Assembly (NCBI GenBank): GCA_963727775.1
Contig: CAVSHB010000001.1
Span: forward strand, 896,001 to 960,000
Source of the DNA: an uncultured Nitrospiraceae bacterium
Lineage (GTDB): Bacteria; Nitrospirota; Thermodesulfovibrionia; Thermodesulfovibrionales; SM23-35
DNA length: 64,000 nucleotides
Direction: 5' to 3'
The translations under genes and the position numbers were made by a program. The notes below the pieces were generated by a model. The model saw nothing but the letters and a program-made list of their open reading frames with translations, searched no databases and was not told where the DNA came from. Shown here in pieces: positions 927-51,292 of the stretch (position 1 is the stretch's first letter; each line of letters starts with the position of its first letter).

Positions 927-1100
927 ATTAATGACTGAAGATACTGAAGATACTTTTTTAAATAAATATAAAATGTTTTTTTAATAACAATTTTATTAAA
1001 AATATAAAAGTATCTTCAGTATCTTCAGTCATTAATCCAATATAAAATGCATAAAGAAGCTGTAGAAAGAATATCTAAAAAGTATCTTCAGTATCTTCAG
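927..1100. repeat. iteron-like inverted/direct repeats in AT-rich DNA
   Basis: 31-bp perfect inverted repeat 927-957 / 1006-1036 built on tandem ACTGAAGAT units; third copy at 1077-1100. Confidence 0.85.
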
Positions 1101-1386: not shown

Positions 1387-2442
1387 ATGAAAGATTTGAT
1401 AGGCGTGGAACTATTTTCAGGAGCTGGGGGCATGTCCTTGGGTGCAATGCAAGCAGGGATTGAAACCCAGTTGGCAGTCGAAGTGAATTGCTACGCGGCC
1501 GCAACGTTTGCTTCAAATATAAAAAACACAACTGTTGTTGTGGATGATATTAAAAATATCAAAGAGTTTAAGTTGAAAAAAAAGGCCCCAATAATTTTAT
1601 TCGGGGGGCCACCATGCCAGGGATTTTCAAGTTCCAATCAGAAAAACAGAACTGTTGAAAATCCTCGGAACTGGTTGTTTAAGGAATTTATGCGATGTGC
1701 TAAGCTGGTTATGCCTGACTGGATTGTTATAGAAAATGTTAAAGGTTTAGCAGAAATGCAAAACGGTTTCTTTCTTAAAGAGATATTTAAAAATTTATAC
1801 AAGATAGGTTATACAATTAATTTCAAAGTCTTAAATGCAGAAGATTATGGTGTGCCTCAAAAGCGAGAAAGAGTTTTTATTGTTGCTTCTCTTCACGGAA
1901 TTGCTTTCAGTTTTCCTCCTCCGATGAATGACAGACCTATCATTGTTAAAGATGCAATTTCTGATCTGCCTGAGCTAGCAAATGGAACCATGGAATATAA
2001 AATGGATTACCGGTCTTCTCCGTTTTCTAATTATGCAAAAATAATGCGAGGGAGAAAAAAAAAATCTCTTAACAATTATGTTACAAAAAACTCTGATTTA
2101 GTTGTCAAAAGATATGAACATATTCCGCAGGGAGGTAATTGGCAGAATATCCCGCAAGAATTAATGTTGAATTACAAAGACCACACAAGGTGTCATCATG
2201 GTATTTACAGACGGTTATCTGAAAACCAACCATCTGTTGTGATAGGGAATTATAGGAAGAATATGCTTATCCATCCCACGCAGAACAGAGGGCTTTCAGT
2301 GCGAGAGGCAGCAAGACTTCAGTCTTTCCCTGATTGGTTTGAGTTTAAAGGTCCTTTAATAAGCCAGCAACAGCAAGTTGGGGATGCTGTTCCACCGCTA
2401 TTAGCTAAAGAAGTATTCAAAAGAATCATTGAATCGAGTTGA
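1387..2442 (+). CDS. dcm: DNA (cytosine-5)-methyltransferase
   Basis: Motifs ELFSGAGG, GGPPCQ, ENV, QKRERVF, RLQSFPD, GDAVPP. Confidence 0.95.
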   Translation: MKDLIGVELFSGAGGMSLGAMQAGIETQLAVEVNCYAAATFASNIKNTTVVVDDIKNIKEFKLKKKAPIILFGGPPCQGFSSSNQKNRTVENPRNWLFKEFMRCAKLVMPDWIVIENVKGLAEMQNGFFLKEIFKNLYKIGYTINFKVLNAEDYGVPQKRERVFIVASLHGIAFSFPPPMNDRPIIVKDAISDLPELANGTMEYKMDYRSSPFSNYAKIMRGRKKKSLNNYVTKNSDLVVKRYEHIPQGGNWQNIPQELMLNYKDHTRCHHGIYRRLSENQPSVVIGNYRKNMLIHPTQNRGLSVREAARLQSFPDWFEFKGPLISQQQQVGDAVPPLLAKEVFKRIIESS

Positions 2443-2443
2443 T

Positions 2444-3487
2444 ATGGAGTTAAATAGAAAGACACTTGAAGCTTGGTTAGAAGATCCGCCCGCTGAAGCG
2501 TTTTTCTTAGGAAGGAAGGTGGCTTTTTATTCTTATTATAGGACCCTTAAGGATTATCTTGATAGAGAAGTACATAAATGGGTTACTATAGGTGCGAATC
2601 TGAAAGATCCAAGTATTGTATTAAATGATCATGGACCAGACCATATAGTTTCAGTAATTGATAGGGCAAGCCTCTTGGTTTCTTGTAGAGACTGCACCTT
2701 AAATGCATTAGAAGTTTATCTCCTATTAGTGTCTATCCAGCTTCACGATACAGGAAATATTTTTGGCAGATATGAACATGAACTAAATGCAGAAAAAGTT
2801 ATGTCTGAAGCGGAGAAAAGATGTGGTCGCGATCAAATTGAAATCGCTATTGTCAAAAAAATAGTCGGAGCACATGGAGGAAGAATCAGAGGGATATCAA
2901 ATGGTTATGATAAAATTGGCTTTCTAAGTCCTTTGGAACCTATTATGAATGAAACGATTAGGCTTCAATCGATAGCAGGCATACTGAGGTTTGCTGACGA
3001 ATTAGCTGATGACAAGAGTAGAGCTAACATAATTTCATTAAAGAGCGGTGATATGCCTAAGAAGAGCGAGGTATTTCATGCCTATTCTTCTTCCTTAGAC
3101 TCTGTTTTAATTAAACACGAAGACAAAGCTGTTGAATTGTATTTTAAAATTCCAAAGGATTTTACAACTCGGAAGTTTGGCAAATTAGATGATGAGGTAT
3201 ACCTATTGGATGAAATATACAACAGAATCATGAAAATGCATCTGGAAAGAATATATTGCATGAGGTTTTGTAAGCGCCTAATAGATATTGAAAAAATTTG
3301 TGTATCAATTATTTTTTATGACAATTATATCGATGATATTTTCCCTCGCATAAGTTTTCAACTTAGTGAGTGGGGTTATCCTCAGGCGAACGAAGATGGC
3401 ATATACGGCCTGTGCCCATCTTTGAAAAATGCGGAAGGTGAAAAAATCAATGGTGAATATGTGAAAAACAAAATATTAGGTGCCTAA
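2444..3487 (+). CDS. HD-superfamily phosphohydrolase (conflict-system type)
   Basis: DHGPDH...LHDTG...AHG...RFADELADD; ATG 1 nt after the dcm stop (alternative TTG start 2429). Confidence 0.75.
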   Translation: MELNRKTLEAWLEDPPAEAFFLGRKVAFYSYYRTLKDYLDREVHKWVTIGANLKDPSIVLNDHGPDHIVSVIDRASLLVSCRDCTLNALEVYLLLVSIQLHDTGNIFGRYEHELNAEKVMSEAEKRCGRDQIEIAIVKKIVGAHGGRIRGISNGYDKIGFLSPLEPIMNETIRLQSIAGILRFADELADDKSRANIISLKSGDMPKKSEVFHAYSSSLDSVLIKHEDKAVELYFKIPKDFTTRKFGKLDDEVYLLDEIYNRIMKMHLERIYCMRFCKRLIDIEKICVSIIFYDNYIDDIFPRISFQLSEWGYPQANEDGIYGLCPSLKNAEGEKINGEYVKNKILGA

Positions 3488-3489
3488 AA

Positions 3490-5262
3490 ATGAAAAGTCC
3501 GTTTGAATATACGACTCCTGAGGCTATTCCGGCAAAGGACATTATCGATTTGTTTGTGCCTGTTTTCGGTGAGTATTACAATGTCCCGAATGTAGGCCAT
3601 ACGTTTATAAATGGGCCAAGAGGCTGCGGAAAAAGCATGATGTTCAGATACATGGGGCCTGACTGCCAAATCCTTGCTTGCAATAAGAAGATTTGTGAAT
3701 TAGATTATTTTGCTATTCACATACCAATAAAAGAAGGACAGCTAGATAAGACCGACCTTAGCCTACTTGAGGACAAGCATGGAGAATCGCTCCTTAATGA
3801 ACACTTCATGGTAGTAAATTTTGCAATAAAGATTTTCGAGAAGTTAGGTGATACAGAAATTGATAGTTCTGTTGTAAACATTGATGCATTAAGAACTTTT
3901 TACAATGATTCTTTTTTGAAACTATTGAATTATGCAAGGTGGGATAGAAGTATTGCATTACCTTCAGAAGTAGAGAATTGCAAGTCTTTTTTTTACCATA
4001 TGAAAGAAGTATGCTCAGAGATAAACAGAGAGTTTACGCAGAACTTTATATATAAGTTAGTAGGTGTGACAACTCCTTTGCCTTATGAGGGGCCAATCTG
4101 TTTGTTTTCTGATTTTTTATTGCCAATTCTAACTAAAATAAAAGAATTGCCTTTTATGCCTAAAGGGCCTATTTATTTGTTGATTGATGATGCTGATAAC
4201 CTAAATAGAATTCAAACCAAGATTCTTAATACGTGGGTATCAATGCGTACCTCTAAATCTGTTAGTTTTAAGATATCAACACAGTTAAATTATAAAACCT
4301 ATAGGACAATTAATAATTCAAGGATTGATACACCACATGATTATTCGGAGATTAACATATCAGATATTTATACTGCGAAGAAAAGTTTATATAAAGCAAG
4401 AGTTAAAGAGGCCGTTGAAAGGCGATTAAATAAGTTTGGGTATAGAGATGTCGGAGCAGAGTCATTTTTCCCACAGGACATGGAGCAGGATAAAAAGATA
4501 AAATCGATATTTATTGAATACCAGAATAAATATGAAGGGAAGCGAGGCTATGATTATGCATATCGATATGCCAGACCGGATTTTATGAAATCTTTAAAGG
4601 GTAATTTAGATACATTTAGTTATGCCGGTTTTGACAACTTGGTGAACATATCTTCTGGGATAATGAGGCACTTTATTGATTTTGCAAATCATATGTATGC
4701 CCACCAAATTGCAAAAACAGGGGGAAAAGATTTTACTTATATCGAACCGAGCATTCAGGATTACGAAGTTAAAGAATATTCAAATTGGTTTTTTGATGAA
4801 AATTTTTCAAAGTTGAGAGGTGATGCTGAAAATACAACTGAAACAATTAATGCTTTCGATAAACTCCGTAATTTAATTGAGGCCTTGGGACAAACCTTTA
4901 ACTTAATTCTTTTTTCTGATGCGACGGAGAGAAGGGTTTTTTCTTTTGCACTGCAAAATGATCCTGATGCTGAGCTTAGGAGAATTTTAAACTTGGGTGT
5001 TCAGAATGGATACTTTCAAAAATCACTTATTGGAAATAAAATGGGAACTGGGAAAGCAAGACTTTACATTTTAAATAGATTGCTGGCTCCTCATTTCAAG
5101 CTTGATCCGACGAGTTTTGCTGGGTACAAATTTGTCACGTGTGATGTCTTGAAAGAAGCATTATATAAACCCAATACTGTTGTTGGGCGAGTAAAGACAC
5201 AAGGGGTTGATAATGTTTTTGAAGATCCGCAACATTCTCTCTTCAGAGAGAATGAATTATGA
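3490..5262 (+). CDS. P-loop ATPase, ORC/CDC6-like
   Basis: Walker A GPRGCGKS, Walker B LLIDDAD, downstream SSGIMRHF; 590 aa. Confidence 0.75.
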   Translation: MKSPFEYTTPEAIPAKDIIDLFVPVFGEYYNVPNVGHTFINGPRGCGKSMMFRYMGPDCQILACNKKICELDYFAIHIPIKEGQLDKTDLSLLEDKHGESLLNEHFMVVNFAIKIFEKLGDTEIDSSVVNIDALRTFYNDSFLKLLNYARWDRSIALPSEVENCKSFFYHMKEVCSEINREFTQNFIYKLVGVTTPLPYEGPICLFSDFLLPILTKIKELPFMPKGPIYLLIDDADNLNRIQTKILNTWVSMRTSKSVSFKISTQLNYKTYRTINNSRIDTPHDYSEINISDIYTAKKSLYKARVKEAVERRLNKFGYRDVGAESFFPQDMEQDKKIKSIFIEYQNKYEGKRGYDYAYRYARPDFMKSLKGNLDTFSYAGFDNLVNISSGIMRHFIDFANHMYAHQIAKTGGKDFTYIEPSIQDYEVKEYSNWFFDENFSKLRGDAENTTETINAFDKLRNLIEALGQTFNLILFSDATERRVFSFALQNDPDAELRRILNLGVQNGYFQKSLIGNKMGTGKARLYILNRLLAPHFKLDPTSFAGYKFVTCDVLKEALYKPNTVVGRVKTQGVDNVFEDPQHSLFRENEL

Positions 5263-6218
5263 TAAAAATGCAACTTGGCCAGATTACAAAATCTATAAAA
5301 GACAAGATTGATGTGTTTATTTGTTCTTCAAGCTTTGAAGAACGGTGTTTTGCTGTTCCTGCCGAAGCAGCAATGCTGAACATTACTTCTAAGTTAATTT
5401 TTTATATATCAGATTTAGATGATATCATTGCTCAAAATGCCGATAAACTTGTGGCAGTTCTTGGTGATGCTTCACGAAAAATTGAGCTGCAAATATGTGA
5501 CCCAGCCCTATCACTTAAAAACATGAGTAATGCTTTGAGTGAAGTCTTTTCTGGAGAGAACCCACAATGCTATTTATTGGATATAACGACTTTTACACAT
5601 GAGGGCTTATTAATGCTGTTTAAGCTGCTTCAACTCAGATTGAAAAAAAATGATAGATTATTTTTATGTTATAACGGTGCTAAAGAATATTCATATAACG
5701 AGTCAACTCCTGAGAAGAAATGGCTTTCAAAAGGTGTCAAGACAGTTAGGTCAATATTAGGATATCCTGGATTATTAGACCCATCCAAAAAAAATCATTT
5801 GGTTATTTTGTTTGGCTTTGAGAGAGAACGCACAATGCGGCTGATTGATATCTTCGAGTACGATTTAGTTTCTCTTGCATTTGGGAGCAAAAATGCCTCA
5901 ATAAATGAAAACCATCAGCAGTTAAATGAAACTCGTCATGAAGAATTACTTAAACTTTATCCAAGCGCACAAAAGTTCGAAGTTTCTCTCATTGACGCCA
6001 GCGAAACAAAAGCACAACTCCTCACATATATTGGAGAATTTTCTGAATACAATACAGTCATTGTCCCCATGAATAATAAGATATCATCGCTAGGTGCAGG
6101 ATTAGCGGCGATAGAAAATCCTGAAATTCAGTTATGTTATGTCACTGCTAATCAGTATAATCTCGAAGGTTATTCCCACCCAAGCGACGAATGCTACTTA
6201 TTTGAAGTAACATTTTAG
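5259..6218 (+). CDS. hypothetical protein, tandem Rossmann/CARF-like repeats
   Basis: ATGA overlap with the ATPase; internal repeat SSSFEER...LDITTFTH versus LFGFERER...VPMNNK; fold is inferred. Confidence 0.6.
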   Translation: MIKMQLGQITKSIKDKIDVFICSSSFEERCFAVPAEAAMLNITSKLIFYISDLDDIIAQNADKLVAVLGDASRKIELQICDPALSLKNMSNALSEVFSGENPQCYLLDITTFTHEGLLMLFKLLQLRLKKNDRLFLCYNGAKEYSYNESTPEKKWLSKGVKTVRSILGYPGLLDPSKKNHLVILFGFERERTMRLIDIFEYDLVSLAFGSKNASINENHQQLNETRHEELLKLYPSAQKFEVSLIDASETKAQLLTYIGEFSEYNTVIVPMNNKISSLGAGLAAIENPEIQLCYVTANQYNLEGYSHPSDECYLFEVTF

Positions 6219-6365: not shown

Positions 6366-6806
6366 TCAAATATTACTTCCTTTTCTTCTCTTGATCACAG
6401 CAAGAACCTTGGAAACACACACGTCAGTTCTTCTTGAAATTGTGTCGCCCCAAAAGCGTAATACAATCCATCCATTTTTTCTTAGGTATCTATTAACTCT
6501 TTTGTCTCTTTCGATATTATTCTCAATCTTTTTATGCCAAAATGCTTTGTTCGATTTTATATTTTGTTTTGCTCTGCTCCAATCCTTTCCATGCCAGAAT
6601 TCACTGTCACAAAAGATAGCTATTCTTAAAGACACCAATGCAATATCTGGAGTTCCTTTTATCCTCCGATAGTTTCTTCTATACCTCAAACCGTTAGACC
6701 ATAATGCCCTAGCAAGCGTATTTTCAATAATCGTATTGCAACCCCTGATAGCCTGCATGTTCTTTCTTCGATGCTCTTTTGATAAGTTGTCCATGAATAT
6801 TTTCAC
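6366..6806 (-). CDS. vsr: very short patch repair endonuclease
   Basis: MDNLSKEHRRKNMQAI, GTPDI, FCDSEFWHG, GWIVLRFW. Confidence 0.93.
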   Translation of the reverse strand: MKIFMDNLSKEHRRKNMQAIRGCNTIIENTLARALWSNGLRYRRNYRRIKGTPDIALVSLRIAIFCDSEFWHGKDWSRAKQNIKSNKAFWHKKIENNIERDKRVNRYLRKNGWIVLRFWGDTISRRTDVCVSKVLAVIKRRKGSNI

Positions 6807-6895: not shown

Positions 6896-7549
6896 ATGGT
6901 TGTTCAAGATGATCGCAGAGAACAAGAGTTAATTGAACGCTTTAACCTTCAATATGTTGAGGGCAGATCAAGCACAGATGCAAAGCTTGAGTTGGATGGT
7001 CAAACAATTTACTTCGAACTTAAATCTACAACAACAGGGTCTGTCACGACAGTTCGTGACTTTGGGCCCGATCACATTAAAAAATGGCAAGGTAAGCACT
7101 GGCTTATTGGTATTTATAACAGCGATCAGATATTGCAACACTGCTTGTATGGTTCCCCAAGAGACATGGAACCATGGATTAAAAAAAAGGAGCAATATAT
7201 TGCATTAGATTTTAATTTAGCTCGGGTTACACCTCCGTTAATCACAGAAGAAACTATGTATGGCCTATTAGGCAAGAAAGAAGTTTATAGTCTTAAAGAT
7301 GCATTTCATATTCAAAAAAGACAGTATTCCAGACAAGACTATAACTCATTAATGGACGTGAAGACTGGTTATTCTCCAGCACGGATGCTACAGATTATCC
7401 GGGAGCGGTGTCAGTACGTTATGGAACGTGGGTCAACCCTTAATAATCCACATATCCCAAGTGCATATTTCAAAGGATGGGAACAAATTGCGCCGGGTGA
7501 TATTAATAAACTTCACGAAAAAATTCGTGTCTATCTACAAAATTCTTGA
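6896..7549 (+). CDS. putative type II restriction endonuclease (PD-(D/E)xK)
   Basis: TDAK...FELKS motif; overlaps a convergent C5 MTase. Confidence 0.6.
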   Translation: MVVQDDRREQELIERFNLQYVEGRSSTDAKLELDGQTIYFELKSTTTGSVTTVRDFGPDHIKKWQGKHWLIGIYNSDQILQHCLYGSPRDMEPWIKKKEQYIALDFNLARVTPPLITEETMYGLLGKKEVYSLKDAFHIQKRQYSRQDYNSLMDVKTGYSPARMLQIIRERCQYVMERGSTLNNPHIPSAYFKGWEQIAPGDINKLHEKIRVYLQNS

Positions 7550-8785
7550 TAGTGCTTTAGCAATATTATATGCAACGGGAGGCGCAACTGAATTACCGAT
7601 AACTCCGATTGCCATATAAACGGGACAATCAAACTTCCAATAACTCGGAAATCCTTGTATAACTGCACAGTCCTCAACTGACAACCTAAAGTGGTTGTTT
7701 GTCGGTGGAAATAATCTTGCTTCTTCTCTATTTCTTGCAACGCCATTCGGCCATATTTGTAGCTTATCCCATTTCCGCAGTGCTGCTGTGCTACTAAGAA
7801 TGGATGTTGTATGTCTTGGCCCTGTCAATCCGCTACGTAATGTTGGAGCAAGCGAGTCATATCCGATTGAAGGTAATCCTAATGCCTCTCTAACCCCCAT
7901 GCATCTCTCAAGATTATCTGCTGAAGAATCTGCAAATAAGGTCAATGCTGCATCTGCTCTGTCTTCCAAAAAGCGACTTGCACTATGAGTAGGCTGTGGT
8001 TGTTTGAATTGTTTTGAAATATATCTCTTATTTGTCCCTACAAAGAAGATTCTTCTCCTTACTTGTGGAACGCCAAAATCATACGCATTAAGTCTAATAA
8101 TTGAAATGTCATAGATAATTTCCAATGGTTTTAAAATTACGCTTGATACATAATCCTTGAATTGCTTACTACCTAATGAAGGAACATTCTCGGCAACAAA
8201 ACATAATGGCTCTGCCTCAAGAACAGCACGAACAAATTCTGGGAACATATCTCTACTATCATTTTTGCCCAGTTGTTTGCCTGCTGTTGAAAAAGGCTGG
8301 CAAGGTGGACCTCCATGAATAACATTGACTTTTCCCCTATACTTCTTCCAATTGACTTTTCTGACATCACCCTTCTCCCCAGAATAAACGTTAATACTCG
8401 GATGATTATTCGTTAATATTTCAGCCCCAATTTCTAATATTTCGTATGAAGCAATATGTGTAAACCCTGCTAATTCAAATCCTATATCTAAGCCTCCACA
8501 GCCACTATATAATGAAATCGCTGTAAGTCCTTTCTTCTTAATCTGTTTCATAACATCTTCTGGTTTGAATAGGGGCATATTTATATCATGAATAGGTGAC
8601 GGCCCTTCTCCATTCAGAGCTTTTTTCTTTAGGCTGGCAGAGGACTTAGACCTGTTACTGTAAACTTCTCTTTCTTTATCGGTCAACGACCATCCATTAT
8701 ACCAAGGAGCTTCAGTGCCTCGATAATAATGTTCCAAGACCGCTTTTGATTTGTTGGTTTTTTGTTTTTTCATCTCTTTTATCAT
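7535..8785 (-). CDS. dcm: DNA (cytosine-5)-methyltransferase
   Basis: SLYSGCGG, GGPPCQ, ENV, QVRRRIF, GNSVAPP. Confidence 0.93.
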   Translation of the reverse strand: MIKEMKKQKTNKSKAVLEHYYRGTEAPWYNGWSLTDKEREVYSNRSKSSASLKKKALNGEGPSPIHDINMPLFKPEDVMKQIKKKGLTAISLYSGCGGLDIGFELAGFTHIASYEILEIGAEILTNNHPSINVYSGEKGDVRKVNWKKYRGKVNVIHGGPPCQPFSTAGKQLGKNDSRDMFPEFVRAVLEAEPLCFVAENVPSLGSKQFKDYVSSVILKPLEIIYDISIIRLNAYDFGVPQVRRRIFFVGTNKRYISKQFKQPQPTHSASRFLEDRADAALTLFADSSADNLERCMGVREALGLPSIGYDSLAPTLRSGLTGPRHTTSILSSTAALRKWDKLQIWPNGVARNREEARLFPPTNNHFRLSVEDCAVIQGFPSYWKFDCPVYMAIGVIGNSVAPPVAYNIAKALSRIL

Positions 8786-9077: not shown

Positions 9078-9662
9078 ATGTTGCCCATATTAAGGAGCAA
9101 AAAAGACCTAACAATTGCATTCAGTCAGAAGCTTCCAAAATATTTCCATAAGCACGAGATCGATGCAATCCTTGATACCGTCAAGCATAATGACAAGTAT
9201 GCTCTCTTGATAAACTTGTTATGGCAAACGGGTGCAAGGGTTTCGGAGATTCTAAATCTCAAGGTCGGGGACATAGATTTTCATAGCAAGGCATTACGAA
9301 TAATTACTCTAAAACAAAAGAACCACCCACAGCGAGCACTTCCAATACAAGGAACACTTCTTGGACAATTAGGCGCGTATATCGCTCTGAAACAGCTTCA
9401 AAAAGACGCCTATTTATTGAAGTTAACAAGACAGAGAGCTCACCAAATAATAATGGATGCTGTTCTAAAGGCTGGCTTTGACAAAGAAAGAGCCCATCCT
9501 CACACATTTAGGCACTCGTTTGCGGTGTTTTCAGTGCTGTCGGGAGTTCCAATTCTGGTAGTAAAAAATTGGTTAGGGCACAGTAATATCCAAAGTACCC
9601 TTGTTTATATGCAAGTACTGGGGAGTGATACGAGGAACTTTTACGAAGGTCTTCAATTCTGA
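9078..9662 (+). CDS. small tyrosine recombinase (catalytic domain only, resolvase-like)
   Basis: GARVSE, TLKQK, HTFRHS, LGHS, catalytic Y in TLVY; 194 aa. Confidence 0.9.
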   Translation: MLPILRSKKDLTIAFSQKLPKYFHKHEIDAILDTVKHNDKYALLINLLWQTGARVSEILNLKVGDIDFHSKALRIITLKQKNHPQRALPIQGTLLGQLGAYIALKQLQKDAYLLKLTRQRAHQIIMDAVLKAGFDKERAHPHTFRHSFAVFSVLSGVPILVVKNWLGHSNIQSTLVYMQVLGSDTRNFYEGLQF

Positions 9663-11114: not shown

Positions 11115-11158
11115 CTCTCAAGGCTAAAACACGGGTTCGAATCCCGTTGGGACCGCCA
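11115..11158 (+). mobile_element. island attachment site: 3' half of tRNA-Glu(CTC)
   Basis: CTCTCAAGGC...GGGTTCGAATCCC...CCA gives anticodon loop, T-arm and CCA, with no 5' half. Confidence 0.85.
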
Positions 11159-11413
11159 ATAAAAACAAAGGTTTACACGATTTTAGCCGGAACATTTTCA
11201 TCCGACCGTGAAGCAAACGCGAAGGTGAGTTTTGAGATGAGACTTCTTAACGAGTCCACATTGAGGTGCATAATGTAATTACAGAAATAGAAATTTAGAC
11301 TTGATCTTTATGAGACCTCAATTAGGAGATGTTAGATACATCTCCTTTTTCTTTAAGGTAGTAATTTGAATGATGAAGAAACAAGCGTGCGAGGAGCAAA
11401 GATACACTAATAC

Positions 11414-11899
11414 TCACTTTTCGTTGGCTTTTTTGAGAACTTCCTTATAGATTTTATCGCTCAGTCTGAAGTTTTTATGCTTGAGCTCATCAAGCAAAGG
11501 TTTGATCGAAGAGATTAGTCTGAGTTGTTTTGCCAACAATAAAATCCCGGCAAGCCCAATTATGTTGAACCCGGCAGAAGTTGCCGCAGTCCTGGCTCTC
11601 TCATCATCAATGATAAGCCAGTCAGCATTTAATTCCTTTCCAAGTACCAAGACCTCTGCTTCGCCCTGTCCAATTTCCGCAATAAACATTTCAACGGTAC
11701 GCCGATCTTTAATTGTCTTCCTTTTAATCCACTTAGAATTCAGTATTTCCTTGACTCCGGGCCTTCCTTTACCTCCGGTAACAACTTCATTGAAAACCGC
11801 ATCGGGAATGTAAACTTCTCCGCAGATTTGGTTTAGAAGCTCGATTTTTCTGATCTTGGCGAGCCCGATCAGGACAGTAGAATCGCAGACAACTTTCAA
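11414..11899 (-). CDS. PIN-domain protein (DUF3368-like)
   Basis: VVCDSTVLI, IPDAVFNE, GEAE, IIDDERAR. Confidence 0.85.
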   Translation of the reverse strand: MKVVCDSTVLIGLAKIRKIELLNQICGEVYIPDAVFNEVVTGGKGRPGVKEILNSKWIKRKTIKDRRTVEMFIAEIGQGEAEVLVLGKELNADWLIIDDERARTAATSAGFNIIGLAGILLLAKQLRLISSIKPLLDELKHKNFRLSDKIYKEVLKKANEK

Positions 11900-12186
11900 C
11901 TTTTCAGAGCCTTCTTAAGCCTTTCCGAACTTTTCAACTCTTTCTCTAACTGTTCTTCGCTGTAATCTATGACGGCAACATTATTTTCCCCGAGAAACTC
12001 GATAAATTCCCACATCGAAAGACCTGATAATTCCGCAGATTTCCCCAGCGATAATATTTTGTCCTTATAGCATTTGAGGGCCAATAGTTTTTTTGTTTCC
12101 TTCGATATCATTTCTTTTGACAGACCATGAGAAGATAAGGTCTGGTAAAGGTCTTTCGGTAAATCTATAACCGCTTTTACTGCCAT
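11896..12186 (-). CDS. UPF0175-family antitoxin-like protein
   Basis: LSLGKSAELSGLSMWEF; own GGAGG RBS before ATG 12186; overlaps the PIN gene. Confidence 0.8.
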   Translation of the reverse strand: MAVKAVIDLPKDLYQTLSSHGLSKEMISKETKKLLALKCYKDKILSLGKSAELSGLSMWEFIEFLGENNVAVIDYSEEQLEKELKSSERLKKALKS

Positions 12187-12828
12187 GACCGCCTCCAGTC
12201 TTTTAGTGAACCGATTTAATAAATCATAACATTTCACAAGAAAACTTAAAACACCTTTTGGTATTAAGAGTCCCGACTGAATAAAATTTCTTAGCTGGAT
12301 CTTTTTCCTGATTTCTTCTTTTATATTCTCTAACGGTATCATCAACCAATTAAACCCGAATGACATTGCATCACTCGATGCTTTTCTAATTCTTTCTCTA
12401 ACTTCGGTTTCTTCTCTGCCGGATGTATATTTATAGTAGGTCTCTTCCGAAGAGAAAATTTCAAACGCCTTCAAATAGTATTTGCTACTTTCTTCCTGCA
12501 TCATGTCTGCAAGCTCCAACATCAGTGCAAATATATTTTTCTCCTTCTTAACTTCTTTCCTTATTTCCCTTAATTGTTCCTCTTTTACTGGTTTATCCAT
12601 AACGATGCCTAAATCAATGAAAGCATCCTTAGCGGTATCACGTTCATATATCGATGCAAGACTCGGAAAGCCTTCAATTTCCAACGTCCTCAGATTCCTA
12701 TCGTATAACGCGAGATAGCCTTTATTTCCGGGGAGTTGGCTGATAGTGAGAAATTCTAAGTAGAATTTTATGAATTTATCAAAGGTAGGATCAATTTTTT
12801 CTTTCCAAGAACGGGTATTAGATGCCAT
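12187..12828 (-). CDS. hypothetical protein, probably truncated, running in frame into the UPF0175 gene
   Basis: N-terminal ~213 codons of the 310-aa ORF; no recognisable motif. Confidence 0.4.
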
Positions 12829-13158
12829 GCCGAATTATATCAAATCTGAGATTAGCAGCGAAATTTAGTTTGCGGAGTACACCCCGCAAAAATCAGTATA
12901 TGATCCAAATAAATATATCAAAAAACTAACTATATAACTCTAACCAACAGGAATAAAAAAGAAAGCAATAAGACTTAATAGAACCCACAGGCAGAAAAAG
13001 AAGAAATGTCTACGGTCTGATTCTTCTCCAGGGTGGGGAATATCAAAGTACCGCCACTTATCAAGAAGGTTTTCAATAAAAAAGCCAATAGTAATTGTTA
13101 AACAGAAACCAGTAATAGCCCAGAAAGCTAACTTTTCAAAGAAAGTATGACACCCCGT

Positions 13159-13200
13159 TCTCAAGGCTAAAACACGGTTCGAATCCCGTTGGGATCGCCA
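13159..13200 (+). mobile_element. second, slightly degenerate tRNA-Glu 3' fragment (att site)
   Basis: Near-copy of 11116-11158 with one G missing and one substitution. Confidence 0.8.
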
Positions 13201-13277
13201 ATTAAATCAAGCGGTTTACAGCGATATTGCGCATTCTCTCATTTCCGATTGTAGCCGATTTGTTTCACCTGATACAT

Positions 13278-14228
13278 CTACCCATGTTTCAATGTAATGA
13301 AAAAATCAGGTATGTATTCGTTAATTGTGCTTTTGATGTGTTTTTCCCATTTACCCGGTAGTGTGTCTAAATAGGATAAAGCTTTTTTAAGCATATCCGG
13401 ATTTTTCATTATTCCTCTTAAGAGACCGGCAGCCTGCATAAGGTCTTTCTCTTTTTTATCCTTTGTCTTTCTTTTCTGTGATACCAGAATTTTGTGGAAA
13501 GCTAATGTCCAAGGGTTCGGTACAAAATAAACATAATCCTCTTTCCCCATTTTTAAGGGTTGTTCAGACAACATCTGCAGGTACCGTAAAGGAGTTGCTT
13601 TTATTTTTAACGCACGTATAGGTACAGCTTTGTCAGAACCCTTGCCTTTTTCAGGTGTCAGAAACTCAACCTTAAATATACCGTTTGTAAAGTAGGTGGA
13701 ACCATCTGGAGCGAACCCTATCGAAAAACCCATAGGTTTTAGCATTGATTCAACATCGGTTTCTTTTCCCTTATACGGGATATTCAGCATAAAATCTATA
13801 TCCTGGGTCTTAATTGTGGGCAGAGTAAATCCTAGTTCATCTTGCATAACAGGCATACAGTAAGAGCCGATGAGAATTGATTTAATTCCGTGCTGAGAGA
13901 ATATTTTTATTATTTCTACGGCAGTAACCTTCTGTGTATTAATTGCCTTTGCTATAACACGAATATTGCCCAGGATTTCTTTTTTCTGTTTTTCCAGTAA
14001 CTGTCTTCTATTGATAGCCTCCAGAAGTTCAGAGGGCACCGCACCGCCCAACGAAACGGACTTTACCTTCCTGCCCTCCCTCCACTGCCGGTAATAGTAT
14101 GTTGATTTGCCGATTTTTTTTGCAGAGATGTTTCCAGCAGGTAATTCCTTGATATCTTCATTTATCCGGGCAAATTCTTTGATAAAGTATATATAGTTTT
14201 CCTGTAGGGTTTTCTCCACGACGCTCAT
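13278..14228 (-). CDS. nucleotidyltransferase-fold protein (GSU2403-like) with N-terminal YYY beta domain
   Basis: LIGS, TQDID, VEFL, FHK, KKEKD. Confidence 0.7.
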   Translation of the reverse strand: MSVVEKTLQENYIYFIKEFARINEDIKELPAGNISAKKIGKSTYYYRQWREGRKVKSVSLGGAVPSELLEAINRRQLLEKQKKEILGNIRVIAKAINTQKVTAVEIIKIFSQHGIKSILIGSYCMPVMQDELGFTLPTIKTQDIDFMLNIPYKGKETDVESMLKPMGFSIGFAPDGSTYFTNGIFKVEFLTPEKGKGSDKAVPIRALKIKATPLRYLQMLSEQPLKMGKEDYVYFVPNPWTLAFHKILVSQKRKTKDKKEKDLMQAAGLLRGIMKNPDMLKKALSYLDTLPGKWEKHIKSTINEYIPDFFITLKHG

Positions 14229-50973: not shown

Positions 50974-51144
50974 GATTTATTATATTCCAAAATTAATCCA
51001 TTCAATAAATAGTTTAATCGATAAGCAATAGGATAGTTAATCTAAAAAAGCATGAAATTGCTGATTTTCTCAAAACATGCATGAAAAAAAGTAGCCCCCA
51101 AAAACATTCTTGACAATTTTTATCGGCAGGAATAAATTATAACC

Positions 51145-51280
51145 AAATAGCAGCCGAGATCCATTCAAGGAATGGATGCGGGGGACCCAAAGTATGGGGC
51201 GTATTTCCCGGGAAGTCCGGGGATAGGGTACTTTCAAACCCGAGTCCGACAGCTAACCTCGCAGGCATTTGAAAGGGCAA
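51145..51280 (+). ncRNA. cyclic di-AMP (ydaO) riboswitch
   Basis: GCGGGGGACCCA...TGGGGCG...AGGG...CCCGAGTCCGACAGCTAACCTCGCAGGC resembles the ydaO consensus; upstream of kimA. Confidence 0.88.
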
Positions 51281-51292
51281 TAGACAGAAATT

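Follow-up and report, generated by a model that had tools for sequence, protein, structure and literature searches.

The stretch of DNA analysed here (hereafter the window) covers 64,000 nucleotides of an uncultured Nitrospiraceae bacterium of the phylum Nitrospirota (assembly GCA_963727775.1, contig CAVSHB010000001.1, positions 896,001 to 960,000 of the forward strand). Near its beginning lie four genes which the original prediction, made from the sequence alone, had read as a candidate defence operon composed of a C5-cytosine methylase, an HD hydrolase, an ORC/CDC6-like ATPase and a tandem CARF-like protein (table 1). The four open reading frames are indeed co-oriented, with junctions of 1 nt and 2 nt followed by an ATGA overlap, and the ATG at 2444 retained as the start of the HD gene agrees with the starts of its homologues. 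All four domain assignments were confirmed by Pfam and PADLOC matches, complemented by structure comparison for the CARF protein. The AT-rich character of the island was likewise verified (GC content of 0.358 in the operon and 0.371 in the island, versus 0.45 for the genome). Scans for promoters and terminators remained at chance level (24 versus 23.4 and 5 versus 3.7, respectively). As the original prediction had stated, no restriction nuclease is recognizable in the operon: genes 2 to 4 matched no nuclease family in library scans. The comparisons presented below indicate that this cassette is a real and widespread variant of a catalogued kind.

Table 1. Features of the window discussed in the text (aa, amino acids; positions are those of the window)
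Feature	Position	Strand	Evidence or description
C5-cytosine DNA methyltransferase, 351 aa	1387..2442	+	PF00145, E 1.8e-67; PC motif; target-recognition alignment
HD-CE metal-dependent phosphohydrolase, 347 aa, likely effector	2444..3487	+	PF24391, E 3.4e-24
ORC-CDC6-like AAA+ ATPase, 590 aa, P-loop arginine, likely switch	3490..5262	+	PF24389, E 8.7e-98
Tandem CARF protein (CARF6), 319 aa, likely ligand sensor	5259..6218	+	PADLOC PDLC01917, E 1.5e-75, residues 5-318
Iteron-like direct and inverted repeats	927..1100	.	54-nt inverted arms, 23-24-nt exact copies, upstream of operon
Vsr T:G mismatch endonuclease, accessory	6366..6806	-	PF03852, TIGR00632
Possible restriction endonuclease of separate restriction-modification pair	6896..7549	+	Weak PADLOC REase_II match, E 0.018
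Second C5 methyltransferase, of separate pair	7535..8785	-	PF00145, E 5.3e-56
Small tyrosine recombinase of island	9078..9662	+	PF00589
Duplicated tRNA-Glu 3' end, right element boundary	11115..11173	+	95% over 60 nt to C1:891933-891992

Conservation of the cassette

Related loci were collected with the CARF gene as anchor. Of 102 genome loci, the 80 best were retained together with two viral loci, and this set spans 14 named phyla (5 of the 80 being unassigned); the profile as such retrieves 2,488 representatives at 50% identity. Gene presence was established through the calling of open reading frames, with 13 odd loci rescanned in all six frames for correction. The ATPase gene precedes the CARF gene in 79 of the 81 loci with 500 bp of upstream sequence, and the HD gene is present in 70 of the 74 with 3.3 kb. 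Among the 71 loci with 4.5 kb upstream, the C5 methylase is found upstream in 60 and downstream in three more, and the full order methylase-HD-ATPase-CARF is retained in 59. The association with a methylase, proposed from a single locus, is thus conserved in this neighbourhood analysis.

Some copies depart from this order. Frameshifted or interrupted cassettes were identified (L003, L024 and L025), as well as two orphan CARF genes (L073 and L077) and one locus missing the HD gene (L009). An adjacent methylase is missing in five cassettes (L008, L031, L032, L051 and L065), which retain every checked catalytic residue. An apparent CARF-methylase fusion in L035 was rejected, as it consists of two genes in different frames. 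No restriction nuclease recurs among the neighbours of related loci, and no recurring cyclase-like cluster was found among the scanned neighbours, a cyclase encoded elsewhere in the genome not having been sought. Four loci belong to cultured carriers (L016, L048, L069 and L070).

The four proteins

The methylase retains an intact PC motif, and the occurrence of Vsr or of a T:G glycosylase as neighbour fits an active enzyme. The HD and Walker motifs, described as intact at first reading, are invariant: residues H67, H101, D102, H112, H144, D185 and E186 among 114 aligned HD homologues, and G42, R44, K48, S49, D233 and D234 among 57 ATPase homologues. The additional invariant H112 and H144 suggest what we take to be a two-metal site. 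The HD protein scores 86.4 bits against the HD-CE profile PF24391 (cut-off 27). Its structural model, with a predicted local distance difference test (pLDDT) score of 94.1, comes closest to GppA/Ppx, in the HD region at their C-terminus (Z 12.0), with cyclic-nucleotide phosphodiesterases next at Z 10-11; as modelled, the fold appears nearest to nucleotide phosphohydrolases.

The ATPase reaches 328.9 bits against the ORC-CDC6-like profile PF24389, with Walker A GPRGCGKS and Walker B DD, and seems by eye to end in a winged helix. Three of seven scanned ATPase relatives also matched the PADLOC model for CARF-kinase-AAA fusions, and the P-loop arginine is a feature of a published kinase-AAA+-CARF fusion family (accessible part of PMC4012209).

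The model of the CARF protein (pLDDT 94.6) best matched Can1 (6sce; Z 13.9, root-mean-square deviation 3.6, 233 aligned), and CARF and SAVED proteins occupied the first 32 rows of this comparison. Two domains are present, the halves aligning mutually at E 1.3e-5 (the name of the CARF6 model lists three), and the protein is devoid of an effector domain. Candidate pocket positions (S25, D108-T111, K274 and S276), defined by the signature given in the same part of PMC4012209, are conserved in the alignments. Among CARF6 proteins elsewhere, P0288 and P0369 carry either the ATPase domain of a histidine kinase or TPR repeats as fusion partner.

Other searches were less informative. Apart from a scrap of P-loop, genes 2 and 3 had no counterpart among the PADLOC models. 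Comparing the CARF, HD and ATPase sequences with solved structures yielded nothing useful, Foldseek gave no clear match, and the clusters found in atlas searches were all either unnamed or HD-CE. A fusion of HD and ATPase was not found among longer proteins, which is a weak test.

A three-gene core and an exchangeable effector

To compare gene histories, quick trees were built from 57 complete cassettes. Among the trees of HD, ATPase and CARF, 0-1 of the 22-30 strong splits are in conflict, and a second tree comparison agrees with a shared history of these three genes; the methylase tree, for its part, conflicts with those of its partners in 9 of 17. Judged from these trees, the methylase is exchanged between cassettes, yet with one target-recognition subfamily kept. 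All but two (L056 and L081) of the 63 cassette methylases, 61 in number, belong by score to this single subfamily, as defined by a profile built from the cassette sequences themselves, and their target-recognition region displays a median identity of 68% to that of the window methylase.

A methylase-anchored search provided 160 loci (L171 repeating L082). Cassette genes accompany 22 of the 49 methylases that fall in the subfamily, versus 1 of 111 outside it. For the 37 subfamily loci with 1 kb of downstream sequence, scanned through representatives, four contexts emerged: 19 cassettes, eight pairs of GHKL/histidine-kinase and receiver genes, seven Mza operons and three HhH-GPD glycosylases. 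The cassette methylases are interleaved with the subfamily methylases of these other operon types. The GHKL/histidine-kinase operons (L093, L099, L101, L102 and L167-L170) are conserved and begin with the subfamily methylase. They further encode a protein with a doubled GHKL/histidine-kinase unit, a receiver and an unknown product of 205 aa, and no nuclease was recognized in them. In L087, L090, L112, L115 and L118, the gene behind the methylase encodes an HhH-GPD glycosylase, which probably takes the place of Vsr; at three of these loci, two unknown genes of 260 and 820 aa form a convergent pair.

Among 301 genomes drawn independently from the phylum of the window, 20 exceeded the PF24389 cut-off, and 15 regions were examined; the three weakest, where neither CARF nor methylase was seen, were set aside. 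Of the 12 remaining loci, 11 contain a methylase (three of C5 and eight of N6/N4 type) and 11 a CARF match. The effector slot is occupied by HD-CE in two (one likely duplicating an earlier locus), PRTase-CE in two, a fused kinase in five, and a fused TIR, a fused ParA and an unknown extension in one each; the TIR and kinase domains are joined to the N-terminus of the ATPase. In L266, the ParA-ORC/CDC6 fusion precedes a CARF-like gene and an N6 methylase. Because methylase and CARF are near-constant in these loci while the effector varies, methylase, ATPase and CARF constitute the core, with HD in the effector slot, and the window cassette represents one of several variants within a larger family. 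Such exchangeable effectors fit the predicted roles of the ATPase as switch, the CARF protein as sensor and the HD enzyme as effector.

Association with thymidylate synthases

Thymidylate synthase genes adjoin 29 of the 82 related loci, ThyA being found at 15 and ThyX at 14; among loci with both flanks, the proportion is 22 of 59. These genes occupy at least five arrangements, among them upstream, inside the operon, downstream and convergent, and at least three changes on the ATPase tree are needed for each of the two labels. The catalytic cysteine and the dUMP-specifying asparagine of ThyA are kept in 14 of 15 copies (one being a fragment) and the ThyX motif in 14 of 14. Integration beside the only thy gene of the host was rejected as an explanation, since another synthase exists elsewhere in 25 of the 29 genomes with a cassette-linked ThyA or ThyX (one of them frameshifted).

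In the methylase-anchored set, a synthase accompanies five of the 22 cassette loci and none of the 138 others (p 3e-5). Within the methylase subfamily, the figures are 5 of 19 versus 0 of 18 (p 0.046). In both comparisons the rows are not independent, and L174 and L175 look alike. A dCTP-deaminase-like gene is found in L046. In the genome of the window, the sole synthase match is divergent (37.8 bits; C1:845958-846326, approx. 50 kb away), and a search for ThyX was negative. That two unrelated synthases have been captured repeatedly suggests that immunity and dTTP supply are connected, a relation of which no mention was found in the literature searched.

Carrier element and neighbouring genes

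The operon resides in a 15,241-bp element, with tRNA-Glu (C1:891901-891976) at one end and a copy of the tRNA 3' end at the other; a second duplicated tRNA-Glu 3' end is located at window positions 13159-13216. The island had been described as tRNA-anchored, and this holds because an intact tRNA-Gln/tRNA-Glu pair lies approximately 4 kb upstream of the window and duplicated tRNA-Glu 3' ends lie within it. The intact tRNA itself is outside, neither ARAGORN nor Rfam detecting any tRNA gene in the window. The element integrase, an HTH_17 (excisionase-like) gene and a primase-polymerase are encoded just upstream of the window (L001), a gene set that reads as satellite-like, and the iteron-like repeats could possibly represent the replication origin of this carrier. 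The ATPase was not found in any of the 40 relatives searched.

Beyond the operon, the first reading had placed vsr and a restriction-modification (R-M) pair. Vsr and the second C5 methylase are present, whereas the restriction enzyme is matched weakly. Vsr lies near 13 of the 82 related loci (a cluster of 14 including the window). The gene at 6896..7549 is outside the cassette, and no homologue of it was found beside relatives. The proposal that the cassette guards this R-M pair is unsupported, as no such pair recurs beside relatives, and it was rejected.

A second island of 2 kb (window 11174-13216) carries toxin-antitoxin-like PIN/DUF3368 and UPF0175 genes and ends in the second tRNA-Glu 3' copy; about 600 bp of it have an 88% paralogue on contig C3. 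An NTP_transf_8 nucleotidyltransferase gene (13278-14228) stands just past the second att copy, and a c-di-AMP riboswitch is located at 51142-51282.

Comparison with known systems

Genes 2 to 4 match the models of catalogued but unnamed cassettes, namely HD-CE (PF24391), PF24389 and CARF6 (PADLOC PDLC01910-01925), with PRTase-CE (PF24390) as an alternative to HD-CE; relatives with a PRTase, TIR or kinase have the core in common with the window cassette. These families reportedly originate from Makarova 2020 and Nicastro 2023, both in Nucleic Acids Research (NAR). The adjacent Pfam numbers suggest a single source study, and an earlier computational description of the cassette is probable. Nevertheless, neither a description of the four-gene layout nor an experiment on it was found in the literature searched, although supplements may list it, and the layout is not described in the accessible parts of PMC12839542, PMC11754643, PMC10542128 and PMC8730458. 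The original prediction had not recognized the layout as an experimentally characterized system; it had missed that the parts are catalogued families, that the cassette has variants and that relatives carry spare thymidylate synthases.

Several described systems share traits with the cassette. PUA-Cal-HAD, according to the part of its account available (10.64898/2026.01.15.699771), responds to m6-dAMP set free when host DNA is degraded, and depletes deoxynucleoside triphosphates (dNTPs). The likeness to PUA-Calcineurin-CE-HAD lies in a nucleotide-degrading effector, predicted for the window cassette, and in a sensor family that is associated with methylases but not with restriction enzymes. 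However, that system relies, in the same part of the account, on a PUA sensor, calcineurin and HAD enzymes and an adenine mark, with no ATPase, whereas the window cassette combines a tandem CARF, an HD enzyme, an ATPase and a predicted cytosine mark; family scans and structure comparisons found no PUA-like sensor, Calcineurin-CE or HAD in it. A tandem CARF fold is common to Can1 and the CARF effectors of type III CRISPR, but the window protein has no fused nuclease, and no Cas10 or cyclase recurs in the neighbourhood. HINPO similarly couples an ATPase of the ORC-CDC6 clade to a toxic partner, and the ParA-ATPase fusion of L266 resembles it. HINPO differs through its HEPN, inactive nucleotidyltransferase and ParA components, none of which was detected in the window cassette by family scans, and the available part of its account mentions neither CARF nor methylase (10.64898/2026.10.19.760177).

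The methylase models of type II R-M, Mza, Druantia II and DISARM II all match the window C5 methylase, but the other genes of these systems have no match to genes 2 to 4; with respect to type II R-M, the methylase has intact catalytic motifs, and no cognate restriction endonuclease was recognized in the operon. Finally, STAND/NLR-like proteins (Avs) unite effector, NTPase and sensor in one chain, where the cassette has separate genes.

Possible mode of action

The order effector (HD), NTPase, sensor (CARF) mirrors the domains of STAND proteins, and in relatives the effector is joined to the ATPase; the cassette reads as an NLR in pieces. A role in defence is highly probable. That HD acts as the effector is likely, and its substrate is somewhat more probably a nucleotide than a nucleic acid; a methylated ligand for CARF is a more tentative proposition. 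As no cyclase recurs nearby, this ligand needs another source, and since a methylase is nearly always present, methylated host DNA degraded in the course of infection is the simplest one, with PUA-Cal-HAD as a precedent. We tentatively propose a split NLR-like defence system triggered by the breakdown products of methylated host DNA. The methylase would mark the host DNA; degradation of the chromosome by a phage would release methylated fragments, and their binding by the tandem CARF would switch on the ATPase. The active HD enzyme would then destroy nucleotides, leading to an abortive anti-phage outcome, and a spare thymidylate synthase would compensate for a strained dTTP pool or hold down the level of uracil nucleotides. 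Intact cassettes without an adjacent methylase fit an enzyme that makes a signal rather than one that protects.

Several observations weigh against this proposal. The genomes of the methylase-less cassettes are mixed, one having the subfamily elsewhere (226 bits), two a borderline match (172 and 166) and two none close (134 and 31), and their assemblies may be incomplete. A free methylated mononucleotide needs no fixed target, yet the methylases belong almost entirely to one subfamily; the ligand would therefore have to be an oligonucleotide, or the readout would take place on intact DNA. The constancy of the target-recognition region speaks for a role of sequence context, compatible either with an oligonucleotide ligand or with an ATPase reading unmethylated sites. 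Mza operons are headed by the same methylase subfamily, and there a self-mark role is natural. The Z score of 12 for the HD model is modest for a mostly helical fold, and no substrate is fixed by such scores. Lastly, the element of the window carries no thymidylate synthase. ThyX also adjoins a kinase variant (L274), so that HD activity by itself does not account for the synthase link.

The ATPase reading just mentioned leads to a restriction-like distinction of self from non-self, in which the methylase shields host sites, the ATPase binds unmethylated sites of an invader and activates HD, as a nuclease or a nucleotide sink, and CARF serves as a second key. The persistence of the target-recognition region through methylase swaps and relocation, and the use of the same subfamily by Mza, speak for it, as does the role of DNA sensor proposed for ORC-CDC6 in the available part of the HINPO account (10.64898/2026.10.19.760177). 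We nonetheless consider it rather unlikely, given five intact-looking cassettes without adjacent methylase, a near-invariant CARF left without ligand, and best HD fold matches that are not nucleases of Cas3/Cas10 type (YhaM at Z 8.9). A module of addiction or housekeeping, stabilizing the island or tuning nucleotide metabolism with no protection against phages, would suit a cassette located on mobile elements, and an orphan methylase with a toxin can enforce maintenance. The exchange of TIR, kinase and PRTase-CE around a CARF sensor, however, bears the hallmarks of immunity, and the patchy spread, with no ATPase in the 40 relatives, also makes this explanation improbable.

Equally low credence is given to two further schemes. 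PrrC and retrons are known examples of guarding, and an ATPase-CARF unit could monitor the methylase or its product and fire HD when a phage protein inhibits the methylase, in agreement with the tight linkage to a single methylase subfamily; but the methylase tree conflicts too often for a physically coupled partner, methylase-less cassettes persist and the neighbouring R-M pair is not conserved. Alternatively, CARF could bind dUMP/dUTP or uracil-containing fragments that accumulate in infected cells, the spare synthase lowering the basal signal and the methylase being accessory. Such a sensor of the thymidine pathway would account for the recruitment of two unrelated synthases at several positions, for their enrichment at cassette loci in the methylase-anchored set, for ThyX beside the kinase variant and for the dCTP-deaminase-like gene; nevertheless, 53 of 82 loci show no synthase, and the far more constant methylase (63 of 71) is left unexplained.

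Significance

The proposal of a split NLR-like system sensing methylated host DNA gives a CARF family without cyclase partner a candidate ligand, and a class of orphan methylases a role. A broader version, which we regard as doubtful, would define a widespread class of NLR-like receptors in pieces. Their tandem CARF would take methylated fragments of the cell's own DNA as a sign of damage, with neither cyclase nor restriction enzyme, and their output would strain the thymidine supply enough for ThyA or ThyX to have been captured repeatedly. As the cassette spans less than 5 kb, has cultured carriers and a swappable effector, one set of mutants could separate the rival mechanisms. If the ligand is indeed a methylated fragment, danger sensing based on the methylome, so far the case of one adenine system, would come to include cytosine marks and CARF domains.

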